In this document: one piece after another, positions 994 to 34,655 of the stretch
How positions within the stretch are numbered: the first letter of the stretch is position 1
Layout of the letters: every line of letters begins with the position of its first letter
IMG/VR virus record: IMGVR_UViG_2531839666_000023
DNA: 34,655 nt
Source of the DNA: a virus
Lineage: Duplodnaviria > Heunggongvirae > Uroviricota > Caudoviricetes
Reading direction: 5' to 3' (one strand)
Position numbers and translations under genes: made by a program
The notes under the pieces: generated by a model
Databases searched by the model: none
What the model saw: only the letters and a program-made list of their open reading frames with translations
What the model was told of the DNA's origin: nothing

Positions 994-1062
994 GATTAGC
1001 CCCTCCAACGGATAAATTAACCAAACACTCCCTGCGGGATGAAACCCGCTCGATGTGTAACG

Positions 1063-1449
1063 TCAGCCAGCATTGCGGCCTGATCGGGATGATTTTTGGG
1101 TAACGTCGATTGAAGCCAGATCGCCCTCCGACTGAGAAGATCCATCAAGAGAGAGAGCCGGGGCAATTTGACCCCCAGCTTCAAACGTTTCATCAGTTGT
1201 TAACCAAAGTGCATATTTTTTAAAACGTAAATTTTTTGTGATCTTTAATAAGATCTCACTTCCGATTCCATCTTGCCTTCCCGTTTCGTAATACCTCTGC
1301 GTATTAACAGGAATCCCTGTAAGCTCAAAGAATTGCTTCCTTGTAAGCCTCTCACTTTTCCGGATCATCAAGATTTTTTCACCGATACTTATTGACAGTG
1401 TCGAATTCATACCACTAAAATCCTCGCAAAAGTGTCGTAATTTCGACAT
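1063..1449 (-). CDS. Phage repressor, XRE-type helix-turn-helix (CI-like)
   Basis: 128 aa from internal ATG; HTH segment LTRKQFFELTGIPVNTQRYYETG; divergent from the Cox-like gene across a ~60 bp intergenic switch. Confidence 0.6.
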   Translation of the reverse strand: MSKLRHFCEDFSGMNSTLSISIGEKILMIRKSERLTRKQFFELTGIPVNTQRYYETGRQDGIGSEILLKITKNLRFKKYALWLTTDETFEAGGQIAPALSLDGSSQSEGDLASIDVTQKSSRSGRNAG

Positions 1450-1475
1450 TAAACAAACCAAAACAAACCTTCATA

Positions 1476-1499
1476 AGGTGCAATAGGCGCACCTGTGCG
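1476..1499. promoter_or_regulatory. Candidate operator palindromes in repressor/Cox divergent promoter region
   Basis: Inverted repeat AGGTGC-N7-GCACCT (1476-1494) overlapping CGCAC-CT-GTGCG (1488-1499), between divergent start codons at 1449 and 1512. Confidence 0.4.
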
Positions 1500-1511
1500 A
1501 GAGGATAACAA

Positions 1512-2039
1512 ATGCGGGACTTCATTGCCGATAAAGAGTTATCTGACACCGATCACACAACTGGAGCGGCGTACATCAACGCCGATACCAGTCAACAAGA
1601 AGCAACAGATAACAACGACGAACAAAAGCCACAGCGCACATATAAAAAAGGGGCAACCCTGCGGCTGGATGGCCCAATAGCCGGGCTTTGCTCACTTGAA
1701 AAAGGGGCCGCCTACATCGGATTAACAAAAACAGCATTACGCGCAGCTCTTCAGCGTAACCAGATGCCAGGGCATAAAACCCGCTCAAACCCTGAAGATG
1801 AGAATTCGGATGGTGTTTGGTGGTTTAACGTCAGAGAGTGGGACAAGCTGGCCGACGAACTCCCGGAATGCGAGCCACCAGAATGGCACAACTGGAAAAG
1901 CTACTGGACATACGACCGCCAGAAAAGAAAGTTTACCCCGGCTGATAAGGAAGATTGCCAGACCGTCAATGGTAAGAGGGTTTACAAAGGCAGAAAGTCA
2001 AAGTTAGAGCAGAACCTAGATAACAGAAAAAACCAGTAA
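1512..2039 (+). CDS. Cox/excisionase-like regulator, unusually long (175 aa)
   Basis: First gene of rightward early operon, divergent from repressor; internal HTH-like segment (GAAYIGLTKTALRAALQ); RBS GAGAGG upstream of ATG. Confidence 0.4.
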   Translation: MRDFIADKELSDTDHTTGAAYINADTSQQEATDNNDEQKPQRTYKKGATLRLDGPIAGLCSLEKGAAYIGLTKTALRAALQRNQMPGHKTRSNPEDENSDGVWWFNVREWDKLADELPECEPPEWHNWKSYWTYDRQKRKFTPADKEDCQTVNGKRVYKGRKSKLEQNLDNRKNQ

Positions 2040-2059
2040 CCCGGCACGCGGGAGGACAT

Positions 2060-2410
2060 ATGGCGAGAACAAAAATTTTTAGTATCAATGAAGCACCAAC
2101 ACTGCCAACCGTGTTTATTCGCATAAACGATAAAAGAACTCCAGGCGGCAATATTTTTTTCAGACTGGATAAACTCGAGGAAGTTTACACCTGCGACAAT
2201 ATTGGCTTAACACCAGAAATAAAGATAAATGGTAGTTCAATCACCCCCACAATCACCTATGAGCAATTTATTAACTTTATCACCGAAGTCATTGATGACG
2301 TTAATAAGGGTATCGAGGGGATAGGAATTTACGAGCTTGTAGTGGATGAAAATACGGTGCGAGACATTGCGCCGCGCACCCAAAAAACAAAGGTTATTAC
2401 ACCAAACTAG
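2060..2410 (+). CDS. Hypothetical protein (116 aa) in A+T-rich insertion
   Basis: ORF in a conspicuously A+T-rich block (by eye); no recognisable motif; 3' end overlaps the convergent ORF by 4 nt. Confidence 0.45.
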   Translation: MARTKIFSINEAPTLPTVFIRINDKRTPGGNIFFRLDKLEEVYTCDNIGLTPEIKINGSSITPTITYEQFINFITEVIDDVNKGIEGIGIYELVVDENTVRDIAPRTQKTKVITPN

Positions 2411-2895
2411 AAGAGAGGTTTATAGAACTTACTGGAAGGGTGAATATCTTTGATACCATGCTCTCTTGCGTACCTTAATGAAAATCTGGAAGCTGATATC
2501 AGTACGTTATATCCATCGTAAATTTTAGCTTTATAAATTAGGTCGCAAAATAACTGAGCATCAGATTGTGCCTGTTCTTTTGTTTTGTTTTTATCTCCTG
2601 TGAATCCATATATTTTCGCAGGTTTATCATCAAAAACATAGAACAAAGACCACACCCAACAGGATTTGATCTCTCTTAAAACTACAGTAACCGAATTTTC
2701 AGAGGCAAGATTTTCATCAACGCATTTTCCATCAGATTCAATAAAAACAGGTGTTTTTATCAGCGTTGTGAATTTTTCAAGTGCCTCGATGCAGTCATCA
2801 CCATGCTCGAAGGCAGGGCTCACAAATAAAAGATTGTCATTAATCAACTCCCAATAAGGAGGAACATCTTTATTTTGACGAACAACAATTTTCAT
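2407..2895 (-). CDS. Hypothetical protein (162 aa) in A+T-rich insertion
   Basis: Internal ATG start preceded by AGGAG at 7 nt spacing; A+T-rich codon usage; convergent with the 2060-2410 ORF. Confidence 0.5.
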   Translation of the reverse strand: MKIVVRQNKDVPPYWELINDNLLFVSPAFEHGDDCIEALEKFTTLIKTPVFIESDGKCVDENLASENSVTVVLREIKSCWVWSLFYVFDDKPAKIYGFTGDKNKTKEQAQSDAQLFCDLIYKAKIYDGYNVLISASRFSLRYAREHGIKDIHPSSKFYKPLF

Positions 2896-3039
2896 TTTCA
2901 GACTCCTGTGCGTTGTTAGTGATTTCTCCGGTCGCCGCGACGTCAACCGGACACAACAATACTAACACGACAACACGCGCCGGGCGTGGTTAAACATCCC
3001 GGCACTGATTTTCATTTAACTTAAACGGGGTTTTCCGAT

Positions 3040-3378
3040 ATGACACAGCGACGCAGCTTCCGCACTGGCGCAGAACGCCACGCTAACCGTTTCTCAACCA
3101 GCGCATCACGCAGCAACTCGCACTACAGCCTGCAGGAAACGCACGCCACACCTGACGGGCATCTGGTTAAACAAACCGGTAAACACACCTGGCTGATTAA
3201 TGATGCCGGAATTGTCATACACAGAGGCGCACGCAACCCGATTACCGGAAATACCTGTTACTCCCTGACTCGCGGAGATGAGCAGTTCGGGCAGGATTTC
3301 ACCCTGCACGAAGCATTAAGAACGGCAGACCGGTTAATCAGCGGTCGCAGTTTTCAGCACCCGGAACATCGCCGCTGA
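3040..3378 (+). CDS. Hypothetical early protein (112 aa)
   Basis: ORF on early-operon strand; no motif recognised. Confidence 0.4.
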   Translation: MTQRRSFRTGAERHANRFSTSASRSNSHYSLQETHATPDGHLVKQTGKHTWLINDAGIVIHRGARNPITGNTCYSLTRGDEQFGQDFTLHEALRTADRLISGRSFQHPEHRR

Positions 3379-3397
3379 TAAATAAAAGGATTCAGCC

Positions 3398-3640
3398 ATG
3401 ATCGAAGCCTACAAAATACTTATTAATAATGCGTTGCAGCGTTATCACTTCGAACTTGCAAACCGGGGTGTAACCCGTGACGAAGGACTTCGTAACTCAC
3501 TGCGGGGCGCAATTATGGGACTGTATAACTGCGCACTGGGCAGCGATGACCGCGAAGCACTGGAAGAATTAAAAGTTATTGTGGCCGAACTGTTTGAAGG
3601 TGAAATCGTTGAGCCTTATTTCACAGAGGTGGCAGCATGA
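3398..3640 (+). CDS. Hypothetical early protein (80 aa)
   Basis: ORF on early-operon strand; stop overlaps next start as ATGA. Confidence 0.4.
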   Translation: MIEAYKILINNALQRYHFELANRGVTRDEGLRNSLRGAIMGLYNCALGSDDREALEELKVIVAELFEGEIVEPYFTEVAA

Positions 3641-3762
3641 GCGTATTTCTTTCATGGGTGATTCTGATTATTTCCGTGCTTATGGCGATTGGCATTATGC
3701 GAATTATCGAAGCGCTGAAAAATATCGAATCTTTATTTACTGGCGAAGAACGCCGTAAATAA
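3637..3762 (+). CDS. Small single-pass membrane peptide (41 aa)
   Basis: Below the 60 aa ORF-track cutoff; hand translation MSVFLSWVILIISVLMAIGIMRIIEALKNIESLFTGEERRK; ATG overlaps the upstream stop (ATGA). Confidence 0.35.
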   Translation: MSVFLSWVILIISVLMAIGIMRIIEALKNIESLFTGEERRK

Positions 3763-3841
3763 ATAACCAACCGGACAGAAAACATTAAAACCATCCGCAT
3801 CTGCGGAGGGCTTCACTCAATCCAGAAACGGAGAAACAGCT

Positions 3842-4120
3842 ATGAGCATCAATACACCTACAGAAATAAACAAACTATTTACCGACCCGGCGCATATTGA
3901 ATTGACGCAAAAAGCGCTGACTGAAATAACCAATGTACTGGATGAAAGAATGTCAGAAATAGATAAAGACAAGCATTTTGCCACCTACATGGCCCTGCAA
4001 ATGCAAAGCATGGCAATGGTGACAGCAAAACAGACCATCAGTGAACTCTATATGAAAAACCTGCGCCTCGAGCGCGAACTGGCAGAACTCCGGGCACAGT
4101 CCGGCCAGTTTTCAGCGTGA
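3842..4120 (+). CDS. Hypothetical early protein (92 aa), coiled-coil-like C-terminus
   Basis: ORF with plausible spacing in operon; no motif recognised. Confidence 0.4.
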   Translation: MSINTPTEINKLFTDPAHIELTQKALTEITNVLDERMSEIDKDKHFATYMALQMQSMAMVTAKQTISELYMKNLRLERELAELRAQSGQFSA

Positions 4121-4383
4121 GGGGCAGGACGATGAACAGCATATTTACCGCCACAAGACGAACCCTGCTGACGCATTTCACCGATGCCGCGGGCCGCGAG
4201 TTCATGGTGGAAAGTTATTTAATCACAACGACCACGCCGTGCCCGTCAGACGCTGACTATCTCTACATCCATCTGGTTGACGGAACACAAATCACCGCGA
4301 TTGCCAGTACCGTTCGCGAAGTAATGACCATCAGAGGGGCATGGAAATCAGAAACACAAGCCCACGGAGAGCTGCGGCCATGA
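4117..4383 (+). CDS. Hypothetical early protein (88 aa)
   Basis: Start overlaps upstream stop; downstream gene starts by ATGA overlap. Confidence 0.4.
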   Translation: MRGRTMNSIFTATRRTLLTHFTDAAGREFMVESYLITTTTPCPSDADYLYIHLVDGTQITAIASTVREVMTIRGAWKSETQAHGELRP

Positions 4384-5173: not shown

Positions 5174-5293
5174 GTGATCATCATGCACACACAAAAAACC
5201 GCTTGCCAGCGCTCGTCGTGTCGGGTTACATTTCCGCTGCACCTCATAAAACGGGTGCCGGGATTGCAACCCCCGCCGACTATGCACGCGCAC

Positions 5294-5314
5294 AACCGCG
5301 CCAGCGGTTTTTTT
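5294..5314 (+). terminator. Rho-independent terminator-like hairpin
   Basis: Stem AACCGC, loop GCCA, stem GCGGTT, followed by a 7-T run on the + strand. Confidence 0.45.
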
Positions 5315-5492
5315 GTGCGTACTGTATCGCCACGTCTTTTTCGCATCGAAATTATGGCGGGGCGTACGGGGCCGACTTCGGTCGGGCCGGGTTCGTGCGT
5401 AGCCGGTGGTTGCAACCCTGTACGTCTCGCCACCCAGAATTGCAACCTCTGGATGGTGAGTTTTCAAAACTTACTACGTACGAGGCCACACC

Positions 5493-5720
5493 ATGGCAAA
5501 CCGCAAACAACAGCGCGCCCGCGCTGAGCGTCTTCACATCCGCACTGAAATCAACCGCAGGCTCTGGCGCGCATCACGCGTCGCGCAAATCATGTACATC
5601 AACATGCTGCATGAACACGCACACGCGCTGTCAGACCGTTACTGTGCCGCCGTCTTCAGCTACCTGGCGGATGACCTGGCAGAGCTGCAGGACCTTATCA
5701 ACCAGCAACACCACCACTAA
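5493..5720 (+). CDS. Hypothetical protein (75 aa)
   Basis: ORF following the repeat/hairpin-rich non-coding stretch; basic N-terminus. Confidence 0.35.
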   Translation: MANRKQQRARAERLHIRTEINRRLWRASRVAQIMYINMLHEHAHALSDRYCAAVFSYLADDLAELQDLINQQHHH

Positions 5721-5788: not shown

Positions 5789-6199
5789 ATGAAGAGCGTT
5801 AAGGGACTTTCAGATATTCAGGATTTTTTTAACTGGATGTGGGCAGTGGATCCCCGGCTGGCTTCCCGCCTGAACGACTGGCACGACTATTACCGCCGCG
5901 CCTGTAAACAGGCCGCCAGACACGTCACCACATACGGGGATTTCTCCTTCACCGTTGACGACCGTTACCGCGTGGACGTGAAAGGTGATGGTTTTGGTTT
6001 ATTTCACATCAACGGAACCGACAGCACCGCCATCAGTTGGTCGTCGTCAGAGATGACGCTTGTTCTGGAAATGACAAACCACAGCGTGGCCGTGAAAGGT
6101 ATATACACCGCAGAAGACTTTATCGGTGAATACCAGCGCCTTCTCGTGCTGTACCGCGCGGCGTTTCAGGCGGCGACTGCCGGGGAGTGCGACGCATGA
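5789..6199 (+). CDS. Hypothetical protein (136 aa) upstream of replication gene
   Basis: ORF whose 3' end overlaps the start of the replication initiator gene. Confidence 0.45.
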   Translation: MKSVKGLSDIQDFFNWMWAVDPRLASRLNDWHDYYRRACKQAARHVTTYGDFSFTVDDRYRVDVKGDGFGLFHINGTDSTAISWSSSEMTLVLEMTNHSVAVKGIYTAEDFIGEYQRLLVLYRAAFQAATAGECDA

Positions 6200-8715
6200 G
6201 CGACCATAATGCACAACTGGCGTACCCGTGGAACGCCCCGCTACCGGTTATCGATCCTGAAACGTTCGGCAGAGCGCAGCCAACCGCATTACGCCAGGCC
6301 ATTCAGAGCTACATCAACGAGGATATTCGCACTGACGCCAGACTGGATGAAGAAACCGTCGCCTTCCTGACAACCACAGACGAAGGGAAGCGAATTAATT
6401 CGCATCTTTACCACGACGAAGAGCGTCGGATCAGGCTGGAAAAACTGGCGCGGCACAAACACGAGAATCCGCCAACACTGGTATCTGAAGCCATGGCAGA
6501 GCTGCGCGCCCTGCCGCCGTTTCTTGCCGGTCCGCTCATCCGTGACCTGGCGCGCCTGAGCCGCAAACAGGAGAGCGCACGCCGGGAAGGGCTTAAGAAT
6601 AACAGCGCATATGCGGCGGATAACTTCGTTCGTCACGGGCTGCGTGCCCGCCTGAAACGTATCGCCCGTGTGAATGAACGCTTTGCCACCCCGGCCTTTA
6701 AGGCCACCGCCGCGCGCGAACGGCTGGATGAACTGCTTATGCTGCCACAGCTGAGCCGTGACGAAATCCAGCGCCTTGCCACCCTGACCGCCACCGCGTT
6801 TTCCACCGCACTGGAGCGCGCATGTGATGAAGTCATCGAAAAGACCGGCAGGGGTGACGATGACCTGCTCACCTGGTTACTGACCTACCAGCCACTGGCA
6901 CACATGGCGTTAAAACTGGGTATCACGCCACCCTGCTGGCCGTCGCTGGAAATCAGGCCCGACCGCCGCACCGACCCCGACCCGGAACGGGTGCCGGGTG
7001 CGGTCATGCGCCTTTCCTGTGCGACATGGTGGAACAGTCAGTTAAGACACCTCCGGGACATCTGGCGTGAAGAACTGTTACGCGCCGCAGGTCTGGTGTC
7101 ACGTAAGACATCGGTATATATCAGCCATGAAGCGTTACTGGACTGGCGCGAAAAACGCCAGCGCACCCGCGATTTTCTGAAGGCCTGGGACATCGAGAAC
7201 GAAGAGGGAGAACGGTTCAGCCTTGAGGATATCTACTGGGCAGGTCTCTCTAATCCGCGTAACCGCCGTAACGAGATGATGACCTGCGCCCGGGGAATGG
7301 AGCAGGTCGCCGAAGCACGCGGCGACGTGGCGTTTTTCGTCACCGTCACAGCCCCTTCCCGTTTTCACAGCGTGAACGATGACGGCAGCCTGAACCCGAA
7401 ATACTGCGGAGCAACGGTACGCGATGCCAGTGATTATCTGGTTTACCGCTTTTTCGCCGCCGTCCGCAGGGCCATCGACAAGGCCGGGCTGGGCTGGTAC
7501 GGCGTGCGCACCGTGGAGCCCCACCACGACGGTACACCGCACTGGCACATGCTGGTATTCACCAGCCAGGAAAACGAAGCCCGTATCACTGAAATCATGC
7601 GCAACGCCGCCATCAGGGAGGACCGCGCAGAGCTGGGTGATGATATCTCCCCGCGTTTTAAATGCAAAAAAATCGACCCGGCAAAAGGCACACCGACAAG
7701 CTATATCGCGACCTATATCGGTAAGAACCTGGACGCCAGCACCTTCATGGGGAATGACCCGAAAACCGGCAAACCTTACGTCGATAAGGAATCAGGCAAA
7801 ACCATGGCCGAAACCGTGGAGAACGCCATCGGCTGGGCAGGCCTTCACCGCATCCACCAGTTCCAGTTCTTCGGTATCCCTCCCCGCCAGGTATGGCGCG
7901 AACTCCGCCGTCTTGCCGGGCAAATGGCCCGTAACCCGGCTGCCCCGCAGCGTCTGGACCATGACGACATTGACGCCATACTGGCCGCCGCCGACGTGGG
8001 ATGTTTTGCCACCTATATCACCCGCCAGGGTGGTGTGCTCATTCCCCGCAACACGTACCTGGTCCGCACCGCATACGAAACTGCCGAAGAGGCCAACGAC
8101 TACGGCGAATTCCCGCAACGCATTTACGGCGTCCGCGCCCCGTCACTCGGGGAGCGCTACACCATATGCACCCACCCGGACACCTGGAAACTGGTCAGAC
8201 GTAAGCCGGAAAACGAAGACCGCACGGACGAGGGTTTTGACGTTGAGTGCGGCTTTGCCGCACCTTGGACTCGTGGCAATAACTGTCCCCCTGACCAGAA
8301 TCTGACCATAAACGCCCCGCCAGAAAGGCAGCCGGACGGACGCAGGGAGCAGCGACTTACCCTGCCGGAAGGTGATTTGGGTGAATGGTTAAGGTCACTG
8401 ACACCCACAGAGCGAAAACAACTCACCAGGCAGCTGAAAAACCCGCCACCTGACACGGAAACCGTGAAAAACGGCGGCATCAGTGCGCCCGCTGGCGGCG
8501 TTCGCGTGAGTGTCGCTCTGACCGCTGAGCCACACATCACCGCACAAATCACCCGCGAGCTTGATGCGCTGGGCGTACAACTGCATGAAAGCGCCGTCGT
8601 TTCCGTCCGTCACGGTGCCCGCGTGCGCCTGGCTGACGGACGCACCGCGTACTGGAATGACAGCACCCGCCGCATTGATATCACCCCCGCACCGAATACG
8701 GAGGCGCCACAATGA
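6187..8715 (+). CDS. Rolling-circle replication initiator/endonuclease, P2 gpA-like (HUH)
   Basis: 842 aa; HUH motif in TPHWHMLVF (around 7537-7560) and YxxxY catalytic-tyrosine motif in SYIATYIGK (around 7699-7725). Confidence 0.85.
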   Translation: MRRMSDHNAQLAYPWNAPLPVIDPETFGRAQPTALRQAIQSYINEDIRTDARLDEETVAFLTTTDEGKRINSHLYHDEERRIRLEKLARHKHENPPTLVSEAMAELRALPPFLAGPLIRDLARLSRKQESARREGLKNNSAYAADNFVRHGLRARLKRIARVNERFATPAFKATAARERLDELLMLPQLSRDEIQRLATLTATAFSTALERACDEVIEKTGRGDDDLLTWLLTYQPLAHMALKLGITPPCWPSLEIRPDRRTDPDPERVPGAVMRLSCATWWNSQLRHLRDIWREELLRAAGLVSRKTSVYISHEALLDWREKRQRTRDFLKAWDIENEEGERFSLEDIYWAGLSNPRNRRNEMMTCARGMEQVAEARGDVAFFVTVTAPSRFHSVNDDGSLNPKYCGATVRDASDYLVYRFFAAVRRAIDKAGLGWYGVRTVEPHHDGTPHWHMLVFTSQENEARITEIMRNAAIREDRAELGDDISPRFKCKKIDPAKGTPTSYIATYIGKNLDASTFMGNDPKTGKPYVDKESGKTMAETVENAIGWAGLHRIHQFQFFGIPPRQVWRELRRLAGQMARNPAAPQRLDHDDIDAILAAADVGCFATYITRQGGVLIPRNTYLVRTAYETAEEANDYGEFPQRIYGVRAPSLGERYTICTHPDTWKLVRRKPENEDRTDEGFDVECGFAAPWTRGNNCPPDQNLTINAPPERQPDGRREQRLTLPEGDLGEWLRSLTPTERKQLTRQLKNPPPDTETVKNGGISAPAGGVRVSVALTAEPHITAQITRELDALGVQLHESAVVSVRHGARVRLADGRTAYWNDSTRRIDITPAPNTEAPQ

Positions 8716-9116
8716 CCCGCTTTTATTGCGCCATGCAGCGCCAGCGTTTTGACGAAATGATGCGCCAGCGCACGCCCTTACTGACCCTGAACAACATTGC
8801 CACGGGGCCACAACCGGGCGATGAGCTGGAAATCACGGTCGTCAGTCCCGATCGCACCACCACGGCCATCATCACCGACATACTCAACGGACGACCGGAC
8901 AGCACCAACCGCAGCTGGCTTGTCGCCGTTCGTCCGCGCCGTCCGCCCGGAGAGCCGGAGCCGCTCACGCCTGCCGGAAAAATCATGCGGCAGTACCACG
9001 AAGAGCAGGCACACAAACACAACGCAGAACTGACCAGAACACTGGCATCGATTAACCGCAAAGCGGCAATTGCCCGCTATGTGCATTCAGCCGCTGGCAG
9101 ACAATCACGCAGGTAA
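8712..9116 (+). CDS. Hypothetical protein (134 aa), coupled to replication gene
   Basis: ATG overlaps the stop of the upstream gene (ATGA); no motif recognised. Confidence 0.4.
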   Translation: MTRFYCAMQRQRFDEMMRQRTPLLTLNNIATGPQPGDELEITVVSPDRTTTAIITDILNGRPDSTNRSWLVAVRPRRPPGEPEPLTPAGKIMRQYHEEQAHKHNAELTRTLASINRKAAIARYVHSAAGRQSRR

Positions 9117-9125
9117 ACAAAGACC

Positions 9126-9335
9126 ATGAACATAACCAGAAACAGCCAACTAAAGGAGCGCACCATGAACAGCACCAGGAGGATCAGCGACAGAGAGCTT
9201 ACGAAAATGATTGAGTCGGCGCAGCAGCTGCTTTCACGACAAAACCCGGTCGTGGAAGAAACATGGTGGGAGAATTTACTGGCAGCACTGACCGAACTCC
9301 GGGAACGCCGGAACAACGAAGGAGCCGCCAAATGA
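9126..9335 (+). CDS. Hypothetical small protein (69 aa or shorter from internal ATG)
   Basis: ORF in the operon; stop overlaps the next start as ATGA. Confidence 0.3.
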   Translation: MNITRNSQLKERTMNSTRRISDRELTKMIESAQQLLSRQNPVVEETWWENLLAALTELRERRNNEGAAK

Positions 9336-9658
9336 AGACCCCAGGAATGACCGGAAAGGAAATCATTTTACGCTACCTGGAAACGCACGCACGTTTCAGC
9401 GCCCCAGAACTGGTAGAAAAACTGGGCGTGAAAAGAACCGTCATTAATCAGGCCGCCGGAAAAATGGTACGGGAAGGGTTGCTGGTTGTGGACGGGTACA
9501 CGGACAAGATAACGCATTACCGGAAGCCAACGGAAAAGGAACGACAGGAACTGGCGCAACGGGCTGAACAGCAGCAGGAAAAATCAGTCATCGAAGCCTG
9601 CAAGCGCAGCGAAATCATGAAGCGAATTCTGTTTATCTACGGCGCTGCATTCCGTTAA
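9332..9658 (+). CDS. Hypothetical protein (108 aa), possible winged-helix fold
   Basis: Internal ATG of the 9263-9658 ORF; pattern LVEKLGVKRTVINQAAGKMVREGLLV resembles a small DNA-binding domain (inference). Confidence 0.4.
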   Translation: MKTPGMTGKEIILRYLETHARFSAPELVEKLGVKRTVINQAAGKMVREGLLVVDGYTDKITHYRKPTEKERQELAQRAEQQQEKSVIEACKRSEIMKRILFIYGAAFR

Positions 9659-9672
9659 AGGAGCTGGTGAGT

Positions 9673-9697
9673 CGGGGCAAAAATTCTTTTTGCCCCG
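9673..9697. terminator. Bidirectional rho-independent terminator between convergent genes
   Basis: Perfect hairpin CGGGGCAAAAA-TTC-TTTTTGCCCCG, flanked by A/T runs on both strands. Confidence 0.7.
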
Positions 9698-9723
9698 GCG
9701 AAGCAGCAGACAAGCGAAGCGCG

Positions 9724-9987
9724 TCAGGAACGCCGCGACAGTAGTTCAAGCGCATACCGGCGATCTTCCGGGCACATGGCATCAACAAGAAACTTCACCA
9801 TATTGCGACCGGAGCGGGCGCCGGGGCTGAGGGTATGGGAAAAGGTCATCGTACAGACGAAGGTATGCCCGCATTCGACATCACTGCATGCACAGTACAG
9901 ATCCGCAAGTTCAGGGGTTTTCCAGTCTGTCTTCCGGATGACAGCAGGTGCGCCACAGTCCGGACACCGGGCTTTAAAAATCCGCAT
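9724..9987 (-). CDS. ogr: Ogr/Delta-family zinc-finger late transcription activator
   Basis: 87 aa from internal ATG with GGGAGG RBS; cysteine pattern CPDC...CACSDVEC typical of the Ogr/Delta zinc finger; sits just downstream of the portal gene on the same strand. Confidence 0.6.
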   Translation of the reverse strand: MRIFKARCPDCGAPAVIRKTDWKTPELADLYCACSDVECGHTFVCTMTFSHTLSPGARSGRNMVKFLVDAMCPEDRRYALELLSRRS

Positions 9988-10024
9988 CTTACCTCCCGAT
10001 AACACGTATCCCGGGGAGGACATT

Positions 10025-11077
10025 TTACCCGACCGGCACCGCTTTTTCTTCCGCCACATGCCCGGCATCCACATCAAAACGAAGATAAAGGTGTTCCGGT
10101 ATATCGGGATCGCTGTTCACGGCGTTCATGATTTTACGCTGAAGCGGTATCACCTCATCCTTGCGGTACGTTTCACGCGTCGTTTCCGGGTTAGGGATGG
10201 TGGCCCCGTTCGTGGGGATGATCCCCGCAAGACCGGCAGGAAAGCGGTGTGCCGTAAACACATCCTGGGCGCTGATCCCCTTGATGTTTGAAAATTCATC
10301 CTTGGCGCTCACCTCACCAATCGGAATAATTTTCACCCCATCCGGCGAACCTTTGGGGATGTTGATGTACAGATTGCGGAAATTTCCCAGCCCCTTAGAC
10401 TCCGCCACCTTCTCGCGGATCTCATCCTCCATCTCCGTGGTGATCCCCGGGTCGTTCGTATACAGCAAAAACCCCATATGCGCCCCGTTGTTGTAGTAAC
10501 GGCGACGAAAAAGGCTGGCCTCGCTGTTCAGCAGCGCCGAGTGAATGCCACCGATATAATCCGGCAGCCCGTAAATTTGCTGACGCGGATCATACATCCG
10601 CAGAAAGATAATATCTTCCGGCGTATAGACCAGCGCGGGGCCTTCCTGAAGCACCACGAACTCACCGGTTTTGCGGCGCCGGAGATACAGCGACGGAAGC
10701 GGCTCAAGTGCCACGACGTCGCCGAATACGTTACGCACCTTGAGCAGGGCGAGATCGCCGAACAACAGGTAGTCAAATACCGCCTGTTCCATCTGGTCCG
10801 TTGTGAGGCCACCACCGGTATAGCCCCCCGCCACCATGTTACGGCGGGCATACAGCACCCCACCGTGCTGGGCGTTAAGGTTCGGGAGCTGCGCCAGTGC
10901 CAGGCGGTTAATCGGCAGCTGCCAGTGGTTGTGTTCGTTGTCATACCAGATGTTATGGTAGTCCGTGCCGGTGGTCAGCACCGGTTCCGGCTGACCAAAC
11001 GTGATTGTGCTGCCACGTGCGGGCGTGAATGCTTTTTTCGTCACGCGTGACGTTTTGTTTCTGCGTTTCTTGCTCAT
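10025..11077 (-). CDS. Portal protein, P2 gpQ-like
   Basis: ~350 aa directly downstream of the terminase gene on the same strand, divergent from scaffold/capsid genes as in P2; start may be 11098 or 11077. Confidence 0.8.
   Translation of the reverse strand: MSKKRRNKTSRVTKKAFTPARGSTITFGQPEPVLTTGTDYHNIWYDNEHNHWQLPINRLALAQLPNLNAQHGGVLYARRNMVAGGYTGGGLTTDQMEQAVFDYLLFGDLALLKVRNVFGDVVALEPLPSLYLRRRKTGEFVVLQEGPALVYTPEDIIFLRMYDPRQQIYGLPDYIGGIHSALLNSEASLFRRRYYNNGAHMGFLLYTNDPGITTEMEDEIREKVAESKGLGNFRNLYINIPKGSPDGVKIIPIGEVSAKDEFSNIKGISAQDVFTAHRFPAGLAGIIPTNGATIPNPETTRETYRKDEVIPLQRKIMNAVNSDPDIPEHLYLRFDVDAGHVAEEKAVPVG

Positions 11078-33362: not shown

Positions 33363-34655
<1,293 letters not shown>

Follow-up and report, generated by a model that had tools for sequence, protein, structure and literature searches.

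A compact cassette of two convergent genes, directly behind the cox gene of a P2-like Escherichia coli prophage, was found to be exchanged as a unit between related prophages. The prophage is contained in a stretch of 34,655 nucleotides from a virus of the class Caudoviricetes (IMG/VR record IMGVR_UViG_2531839666_000023), which was analysed at full length and is called the window in the following; its left end is the control region of the prophage. The cassette consists of a forward gene coding for a protein of 116 residues and a reversed gene coding for a protein of 162 residues. It is a two-gene module conserved in many P2-like prophages of the Enterobacterales and not a one-off insertion. 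On the sequence evidence it is a good, though unproven, candidate for a well-defined prophage accessory system with unusual wiring.

The pairing of the two genes was established from their relatives. An exhaustive phmmer search of 1.8 billion representatives returned eight clusters for the 162-residue protein, one of which was spurious, and the genomic context was viewed for every real cluster. A gene of the 162-residue family is located tail-to-tail with a gene for 96–116 residues in loci L001, L012, L013, L014, L015 and L016/L017, and further tail-to-tail loci are L018–L022 and L024–L027. Four others (L032–L035) have reversed genes called at 153–155 residues in the same layout, an assignment by length and position that lies outside the scoring with the family profile. 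When the search started from the forward gene, 9 of the 10 IMG/VR loci found via the 116-residue family carried a gene of the 162-residue family directly tail-to-tail. The forward partner is a clear member of the 116-residue family in all lineages except L016/L017. Clear membership was considered for the partner in L016 and rejected: only a short motif is in register, and the hhalign probability is 1%. Locus L023 has a gene of the 116-residue family with a C-terminal extension (183 residues), facing an unrelated reversed gene of 91 residues (PHROG 32592).

Wherever enough context is available, Cox flanks the pair on one side and the remaining P2-like early operon on the other; the backbones differ. 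As an example, an E. coli prophage beside pdxB has a Cox protein of 95 residues and the same layout with a reversed gene of 155 residues; a Salmonella prophage has a 91-residue Cox and the same layout with a reversed gene of 153 residues, followed by Fil. These arrangements indicate that the pair has been inherited together, tail-to-tail, across lineages that have diverged to about 30% identity. Proteins identical to the pair are encoded on about 150 E. coli draft contigs. The pair is known from draft assemblies and metagenomes only, as none of the complete E. coli RefSeq genomes contains it. Among deposited phage genomes and plasmids, megablast and tblastn found no counterpart of the block or of either protein, and a conserved-peptide scan of the GTDB species genomes confirmed no locus.

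A first-pass annotation, made from the sequence alone, had singled out the block 2060–2895 as A+T-rich and foreign in composition, and measurement bears this out. The G+C content of the block is 37.2% compared with 55.8% for the whole window. Among segments of 836 nt (mean 0.559, standard deviation 0.051) it is the lowest in 34.6 kb, and 0.06% of the segments are as low. At third codon positions the G+C fraction is 0.41 for the 116-residue gene and 0.31 for the 162-residue gene, compared with 0.53 for cox and 0.58 for the DUF4761 gene on the other side. The two tail-to-tail reading frames with a 3' overlap of 4 nt, and the strong AGGAG ribosome-binding site ahead of the reversed gene, are present as annotated. 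Packing is also tight in the relatives, ranging from an overlap of 4 or 8 nt to a gap of 1–4 nt. As read directly from the sequence, the stops overlap, so that a terminator cannot fit between the two genes. When diverged copies were compared, the ratio of non-synonymous to synonymous substitution rates (dN/dS) was 0.10–0.24 for both families, which indicates that both genes are real and under purifying selection.

As the annotation had also noted, neither protein has a recognisable motif. No match was obtained for either of them in Pfam, NCBIfam or PADLOC (PADLOC-DB v2 at E <= 1). The only matches were to PHROG families of unknown function, 10410 for the 116-residue protein (E 4e-38) and 9021 for the 162-residue protein (E 2e-23). 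Both are hydrophilic overall, with a whole-protein grand average of hydropathicity of about −0.2, which argues against a classical membrane-bound exclusion protein. The suggested role in antiphage defence or superinfection exclusion is thus backed neither by PADLOC nor by the hydropathy of the proteins. Paralogy of the two was considered as well and rejected, since comparison shows them to be unrelated. An Rfam search of the region 1000–4200 gave no match.

The borders of the cassette became apparent from related prophages that carry different cargo at this place. In P88-like phages, homology covers int–C–cox up to position 2002 and resumes at 3056; the slot in between holds a forward gene of 140 residues and a reversed gene of 63 residues. 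Twelve complete E. coli genomes match the DUF4761 side at about 98% identity. In 11 of them homology begins exactly at 2974 and the slot is filled by a forward gene of 131 and a reversed gene of 64 residues; in the twelfth it begins at 3011 and the slot contains only an unannotated forward open reading frame (ORF) of 76 residues. The variability of the slot, which had been put forward as a check, is therefore borne out. Locus L013 has 80% DNA identity to the window over int–C–cox up to 2008, but protein identity in the pair drops to 32% and 47%. Cox proteins both short (89–95 residues) and long (175–185 residues) precede the pair, at different chromosomal sites, and L014 and L016 have it on the far side of the DUF4754 gene. 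These comparisons indicate that it moves between different int/C/cox backbones and attachment sites. The variable content of the slot and the mobility of the pair mark the block as accessory cargo, distinct from the conserved early functions of the P2 family. Of the 'undescribed accessory system' proposed initially, the accessory character stands, in the form of an exchangeable cassette; the block is, however, a module conserved in many prophages, and its two families had already been catalogued in PHROG.

The other cargo seen in the slot is likewise of unknown function. It comprises genes for 140 (+) and 63 (−) residues in L010 (8035–8655), for 131 (+) and 64 (−) residues with a clean intrinsic terminator between them in L030 (2856–3459), for 183 (+) and 91 (−) residues in L023 (1237–2026), and the single unannotated 76-residue forward ORF in L031 (2747–2977). 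A common co-evolving family for the alternative pairs of L010 and L030 was considered and rejected, as weak similarity is confined to their forward genes.

Upstream of the reversed gene we found a new conserved signal, which consists of a dyad, an extended −10 element and a leader hairpin. Its conservation indicates that the reversed gene carries a promoter-like region of its own. Read on the minus strand, the dyad has the form GTGCCGGG-N13-CCCGGCGC (3005–2977) and is followed by a spacer of ~13 nt and the extended −10 element. Transcription of the 162-residue gene is predicted to start some 39 bp downstream of the dyad centre. This plan is kept upstream of every gene of the 162-residue family despite diverged flanks. 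The sequence GTGnTAnnnT, with the core TGnTAnnnT, is invariant in all 13 aligned loci (alignment A5), and each of the 13 leaders folds into a hairpin at the position of the leader stem. The stem has seven pairs according to RNAalifold, with 88% of the cells paired, and five of the seven are changed on both sides in a compensatory manner. Its covariation score is 0.506, compared with 0.295 in shuffles (0 of 500 as high) and 0.10–0.16 for slid partners. The arms of the dyad are paired in 90% of the cells and mostly invariant, with two compensatory changes, and the nested dyad CACGC/GCGTG covaries (88% paired, three pairs changed on both sides). The chance expectation for the dyad pattern is 0.04 per window. 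Its arms are unchanged among lineages, but the spacer ranges between 8 and 13 nt. The cassette junction abuts the dyad.

The signal is not confined to the 162-residue family. Dyad, −10 element and leader recur ahead of reversed genes in L023 and L030 that are unrelated to it; in L030 the −10 element before the 64-residue gene reads TGgTATTCT. The dyad is missing in the sole related prophage without a reversed gene. A simple promoter scan missed the extended −10 site, probably because the scan requires a match in the first (−35) hexamer. Other functions of the dyad were considered and rejected. It is not an intrinsic terminator on either strand, as a U-tract follows in only some lineages, and it fits neither a LexA box nor an Ogr/Delta site (TGT-N12-ACA) nor a sharer of half-sites with the Pe/Pc switch. 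No convincing conserved terminator was found on the antisense strand between the 162-residue gene and C; a hairpin at 2045–2032, tried as a terminator that would end the leftward transcript left of the 116-residue gene, is weak and not conserved.

Similar dyads were encountered at two other places. An exact match to TGCCGGG-N14-CCCGGC, for which the expectation is 0.04 per window, is located at 7914–7940 (+) inside gpA; it is present in only some gpA alleles of the prophage family and is probably due to chance. GCCGG...CCGGC dyads with arms resembling those of the promoter dyad occur in C repressor genes of relatives (L002 9716–9735; L018–L023, e.g. L023 577–596), where they encode a conserved peptide, A-G-Q-I-A-P-A, near the repressor C-terminus. 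This likeness may be a coincidence.

The forward gene differs from the reversed gene in its expected expression. It shares the strand of cox, starts 20 nt behind the cox stop (2039) and has a ribosome-binding site only; a simple consensus promoter scan gave no plus-strand site in 1421–2060. It is therefore considered a member of the early lytic (Pe) operon, and the independent orientation that had been claimed for the genes of the block does not apply to it. From this arrangement, the 116-residue protein is not expected to be made in the lysogen. The protein is mildly acidic, with an isoelectric point (pI) of about 5, and hydrophilic. Its structural model, with a predicted local distance difference test score (pLDDT) of 77, is rich in beta-strands with one long helix, and revealed no significant structural neighbour and no recognisable fold. 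No helix-turn-helix was predicted. The family alignment (A4) shows nearly invariant residues in R-T-P-x-G-N-x-F-F-R-L-D. With the family profile, 34 clusters were found, from Escherichia, Citrobacter, Salmonella, Yersinia, Kluyvera, Buttiauxella and Sodalis. Among the clusters looked up, only full-length alleles of this gene were seen.

For the reversed gene, the mechanical ORF list gave a TTG start at 2946 and thus 179 residues. We assigned the start to the ATG at 2895, because all homologues begin with MK(I/F) there, behind the Shine-Dalgarno sequence. The structural model (pLDDT 87, predicted template modelling score 0.80) shows two beta-beta-beta-alpha units; the chain then continues in short helices and ends disordered. 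The protein thus models as a tandem YegP/DUF1508-like fold plus a C-terminal tail. The modelled units resemble those of YegP/UPF0339/DUF1508 proteins (PDB 2k49, 3bid, 6q2z, 2k7i), and three more UPF0339 chains are in the fold-comparison list for the model. Unlike these proteins, the 162-residue protein has ~40 extra C-terminal residues with an invariant D-x-H-P motif. Conserved tryptophans lie in a strand of each unit (W15; W80 and W82), and we take these strands to resemble the W-x-W-x-L strand of DUF1508. Invariant residues of the C-terminal region are D127, F138, D150, H152 and P153, the tail motif being D150-I-H152-P153-S-S-K.

Sequence profiles do not link the protein to DUF1508 (PF07411, UPF0339): the window protein had no Pfam match at E <= 0.1, seven family members had no match to this profile at E <= 5, and a profile search of PDB sequences with the 162-residue family retrieved no UPF0339 chain. 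Any YegP membership is thus restricted to the fold level. Fold comparison gave no nuclease-like or membrane-active fold. To our knowledge, no YegP protein has a known function and no activity is known for YegP-type domains. Their contexts have been described. In Menshen NsnA, YegP/DUF1508 domains are N-terminal putative sensors, and tandem DUF1508 forms a pseudo-dimer that was likened to the single-strand binders sPC4 and Whirly (PMC12065111). The domains are also fused N-terminally to ubiquitin-like proteins of Bub operons (PMC11601603), and yegP homologues are located downstream of the DNA-damage regulators capK–capS (PMC13373217).

Natural frameshift alleles of the 162-residue gene were observed on about 20 of roughly 170 E. 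coli contigs, and the gene is intact on 146. A frameshift at the codons for GDKNK/TKEQ leads to a product of 109 residues (17 + 3 contigs), and another frameshift yields one of 70 residues. These alleles suggest that the gene is dispensable and perhaps costly. The positions of the cassette, its signals and the surrounding genes are listed in Table 1.

Table 1. Features of the cassette and of the prophage genes around it, in window coordinates.
Feature	Position	Strand	Remarks
Exchangeable cassette	2003–2973		Both genes, with −10 element and leader of the reversed gene
Shine-Dalgarno GGGAGG of 116-residue gene	2050–2055	+	Sequence read directly
116-residue gene, PHROG 10410	2060–2410	+	cox orientation
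Overlapping stop codons	2407–2410		Palindrome CTAG common to both genes
162-residue gene, PHROG 9021	2407–2895	−	Start ATG at 2895
Shine-Dalgarno AGGAG of 162-residue gene	2903–2907	−	7 nt before ATG 2895; conserved in relatives
Leader stem TCCGGT/ACCGGA	2927–2951	−	Predicted 5' end of 162-residue mRNA
Extended −10 TGtTAGTAT	2959–2967	−	No −35 hexamer
Conserved dyad GCGCCGGG-N13-CCCGGCAC (plus strand)	2977–3005		Nested second dyad CACGC/GCGTG
Integrase gene	1–1008	−	
Xre-type C repressor gene	about 1063–1419	−	
Long Cox-family gene	1512–2039	+	PF10743 match over residues 59–130; PHROG 23196
DUF4761 gene	3040–3378		
DUF4754 gene	3398–3640		Remaining early operon continues to gpA
gpA replicase	6187–8715		
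serS	33363–34655	−	Right end of window

Our favoured reading, which is tentative and possible rather than probable, is that the cassette encodes a prophage-state effector and an early-lytic self-immunity partner, each tied to the opposite phage state. With Pe shut by the C repressor in the lysogen, only the 162-residue protein would be made, from its own sigma-70 extended −10 promoter. It may bind a nucleic acid or a protein partner via its pseudo-dimeric body and the DIHPSSK tail, and the binding would interfere with an incoming phage or with lytic development. Upon the lytic switch or infection, transcription from Pe would produce the acidic 116-residue protein straight after Cox and would run antisense through the 162-residue gene into its promoter. 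The effector would thus be turned off at the RNA level by collision and antisense, and leftover effector would be neutralised at the protein level by the cognate 116-residue partner. In this way, convergent transcription would keep effector and self-immunity factor mutually exclusive and tie them to the C/Cox switch. Such an arrangement would explain the strict pairing, the overlapping stops, the swapping of the whole cassette and the occurrence of frameshifts in the 162-residue gene only.

Several points weigh against this proposal. We infer transcription of the 162-residue gene in the prophage state from its promoter-like signal, and since the dyad covers the −35 region, the promoter might need an activator and so be silent in the lysogen. 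The contact between the two proteins is something that we propose. Due to the mismatch in L023, the link between the two families is strong and not obligatory. Neither homology nor a structural model links either protein to a defence system known to PADLOC, and genes of phage early regions serve just as often in counter-defence or host take-over. A wider version of the proposal is fairly doubtful: the post-cox region may be an undescribed cargo site, in which a fixed landing-pad signal (dyad, extended −10, leader hairpin) serves reversed genes and split-orientation cassettes are swapped. The mutually exclusive YegP-like effector and early partner found here would then represent a new type of self/non-self exclusion or induction control, and the first function for a YegP/DUF1508-type fold.

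The cassette might instead be an accessory lysis–lysogeny circuit analogous to cII/pE of phage 186, which we regard as rather unlikely. An early protein made just after Cox, either the 116-residue protein or another early product, would act at the dyad and fire the leftward promoter. The resulting RNA would encode the 162-residue protein, run antisense over the 116-residue gene and cox, and might enter C and int, so that establishment or stability of lysogeny is favoured. The module is indeed in the cII/pE position, directly right of the excisionase/Cox gene, the geometry of the predicted promoter in the window equals that of pE, a convincing terminator between the 162-residue gene and C is missing, and the dyad is found only where a reversed gene is present. 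However, neither protein is related to 186 CII, and the 116-residue protein is an unlikely activator, being acidic with no predicted helix-turn-helix. A dyad spacer of 8–13 nt between constant arms is a poor fit to a fixed dimeric activator site, and in L023 an unrelated gene stands behind this dyad and leader. Moreover, exchange of the cassette is uncoupled from the immunity module, and close relatives manage with unrelated cargo or none. It is therefore not a core component of the switch.

The early position of the genes, immediately past the first early gene, would also suit counter-defence or host take-over functions used during infection, with the reversed gene on its own promoter and neither gene serving the lysogen. 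The small, hydrophilic and mildly acidic proteins and the rapid variation of the cargo are in keeping with such functions; phage 186 has the host take-over genes fil and dhr at the equivalent place, and Fil follows the pair in L012 and L034. We nevertheless consider this unlikely. A gene without terminator that is directed against the early operon would face Pe transcription just when it is needed, and strict pairing and overlapping stops are left unexplained. In addition, anti-defence catalogues on P2-like prophages yielded only anti-restriction–modification and anti-CRISPR genes (28 elements; PMC13586616). A toxin–antitoxin-like module for addiction or stabilisation, regulated by the antisense overlap of the convergent transcripts, would account for a tight two-gene unit with overlapping 3' ends, for its mobility as a unit and for frameshift alleles in only one of the genes. 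It is very improbable, since the genes are not co-transcribed and an antitoxin encoded behind the repressed Pe would be absent in the lysogen. There is also no similarity to toxin or antitoxin families in Pfam or PADLOC and no nuclease-like or membrane-active fold.

In several other respects the control region and the early operon of the prophage are of interest. With dmsABC left of int in the relatives and serS as the last gene on the right of the window, the prophage can be placed between dmsA and serS in the E. coli chromosome. The Cox-family protein has 175 residues and is about twice as long as P2 Cox. Its match to PF10743, restricted to residues 59–130, narrowly misses the Pfam cut-off (27.4 versus 27.5 bits); the N-terminal extension is acidic and the C-terminal tail basic. 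An ORF of 41 residues (3637–3762, +), which overlaps the end of the DUF4754 gene, has a hydrophobic N-terminal half (MSVFLSWVILIISVLMAIGIM...), and several relatives have an equally long called gene at the corresponding position. It possibly encodes a small membrane protein of the early operon.

Two RNA matches at Rfam gathering level, isrK small RNA (56.8 bits, 5239–5314, +) and C4 antisense RNA (78 bits, 5350–5437, +), are located inside an apparently gene-less, G+C-rich gap upstream of a 75-residue ORF (5493–5720, +). This ORF equals in position and length the PF25738 'Derepression' gene called in relatives. The arrangement resembles an antirepressor module under RNA control (P1 c4/ant or IsrK type), set within a P2-like early operon. 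The gpA–portal (old/tin) hotspot, here at 8712–10100, contains only a 134-residue ORF of unknown function, a MarR-like ORF of 131 residues and ogr; no recognisable defence cargo was found in this interval.

P2-like prophages are a main source of newly found antiphage systems, and screens have concentrated on the gpA–portal and Z/fun loci. The slot beside the immunity switch is a further exchangeable site, and its precise junctions and conserved signal make it easy to mine for cargo. The cassette itself is compact (<1 kb) and can be cloned directly. If the 162-residue protein is active, it would provide the first functional handle on YegP/DUF1508-like folds, which occur recurrently beside immune operons. 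The convergent, terminator-less wiring to the C/Cox switch would be a simple natural way of making expression state-specific. Should the cassette turn out to be inert in phage challenge and induction, it would merely be another pair of early-region ORFans.

Comparison with the conversion genes of P2 reveals similarities and differences. Like old, tin and Z/fun, the cassette is A+T-rich and resides in a P2-like prophage, in a slot the content of which varies between similar prophages. tin and old are encoded on the minus strand and have mapped transcript starts; the reversed gene of the cassette likewise opposes the neighbouring operon and has a predicted promoter of its own. Unlike the P2 conversion genes, one gene of the cassette belongs to the early lytic operon; in addition, the cassette is devoid of a terminator and of homology to them. 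As in morons, its composition is foreign and its presence varies among relatives. The autonomy of a moron would apply to the reversed gene in so far as the extended −10 element and the leader are kept across lineages, although there is no terminator; it does not apply to the forward gene, which has no promoter.

The location is also different. Described hotspots of P2-like phages are the gpA–portal (old/tin), Z/fun and tail–CI loci (bioRxiv 10.1101/2024.10.15.618418; PMC9122126), and cox is not mentioned in PMC9122126. The cassette occupies none of these sites, being located directly after cox, between cox and the DUF4761 gene and upstream of gpA. A survey from 2026 assigned 8% of the recognised defence systems in P2-like prophages to the region between integrase and primase, a generic interval that includes the position of the cassette (PMC13586616). 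As far as we could find, a cox-proximal slot with exact junctions, a shared promoter signal and convergent cargo has not been described in the literature.

The cII/pE region of 186 is likewise immediately right of the apl/cox gene. The pE promoter consists of ATGTTTG-N13-CAAACAT, 10 nt and TACAAT, its predicted counterpart in the window of TGCCGGG-N13-CCCGGCG, ~13 nt and TAGTAT. Both are directed leftward and lack a −35 hexamer, with inverted arms of 7–8 bp that are 13 bp apart and a −10 element 10–13 bp further on. The pE transcript is antisense to the early operon, as is the predicted leftward transcript of the window. Unlike the pE transcript, the latter begins with a protein-coding gene, and the dyad spacer is variable among relatives. 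Homology to CII is lacking (hhalign probability <= 0.6% for either family against 186 CII), and the unit is exchangeable cargo outside the immunity module.

Type II toxin–antitoxin systems differ from the cassette in arrangement, as its genes are convergent, and neither Pfam and PADLOC searches nor fold comparison linked them to toxins or antitoxins. Built-in self-immunity is known from the prophage defence gene BstA, where it is provided by a DNA element, aba. The logic proposed for the cassette would be similar, with a prophage-state effector that harms the prophage's own lytic growth and a linked element that spares it. Unlike in BstA/aba, the proposed immunity factor is a protein, and the relationship would be a functional analogy only, with no similarity in sequence or fold. 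The cassette is thus prophage accessory cargo in a variable slot, and stands apart from every named defence, toxin–antitoxin or CII family.

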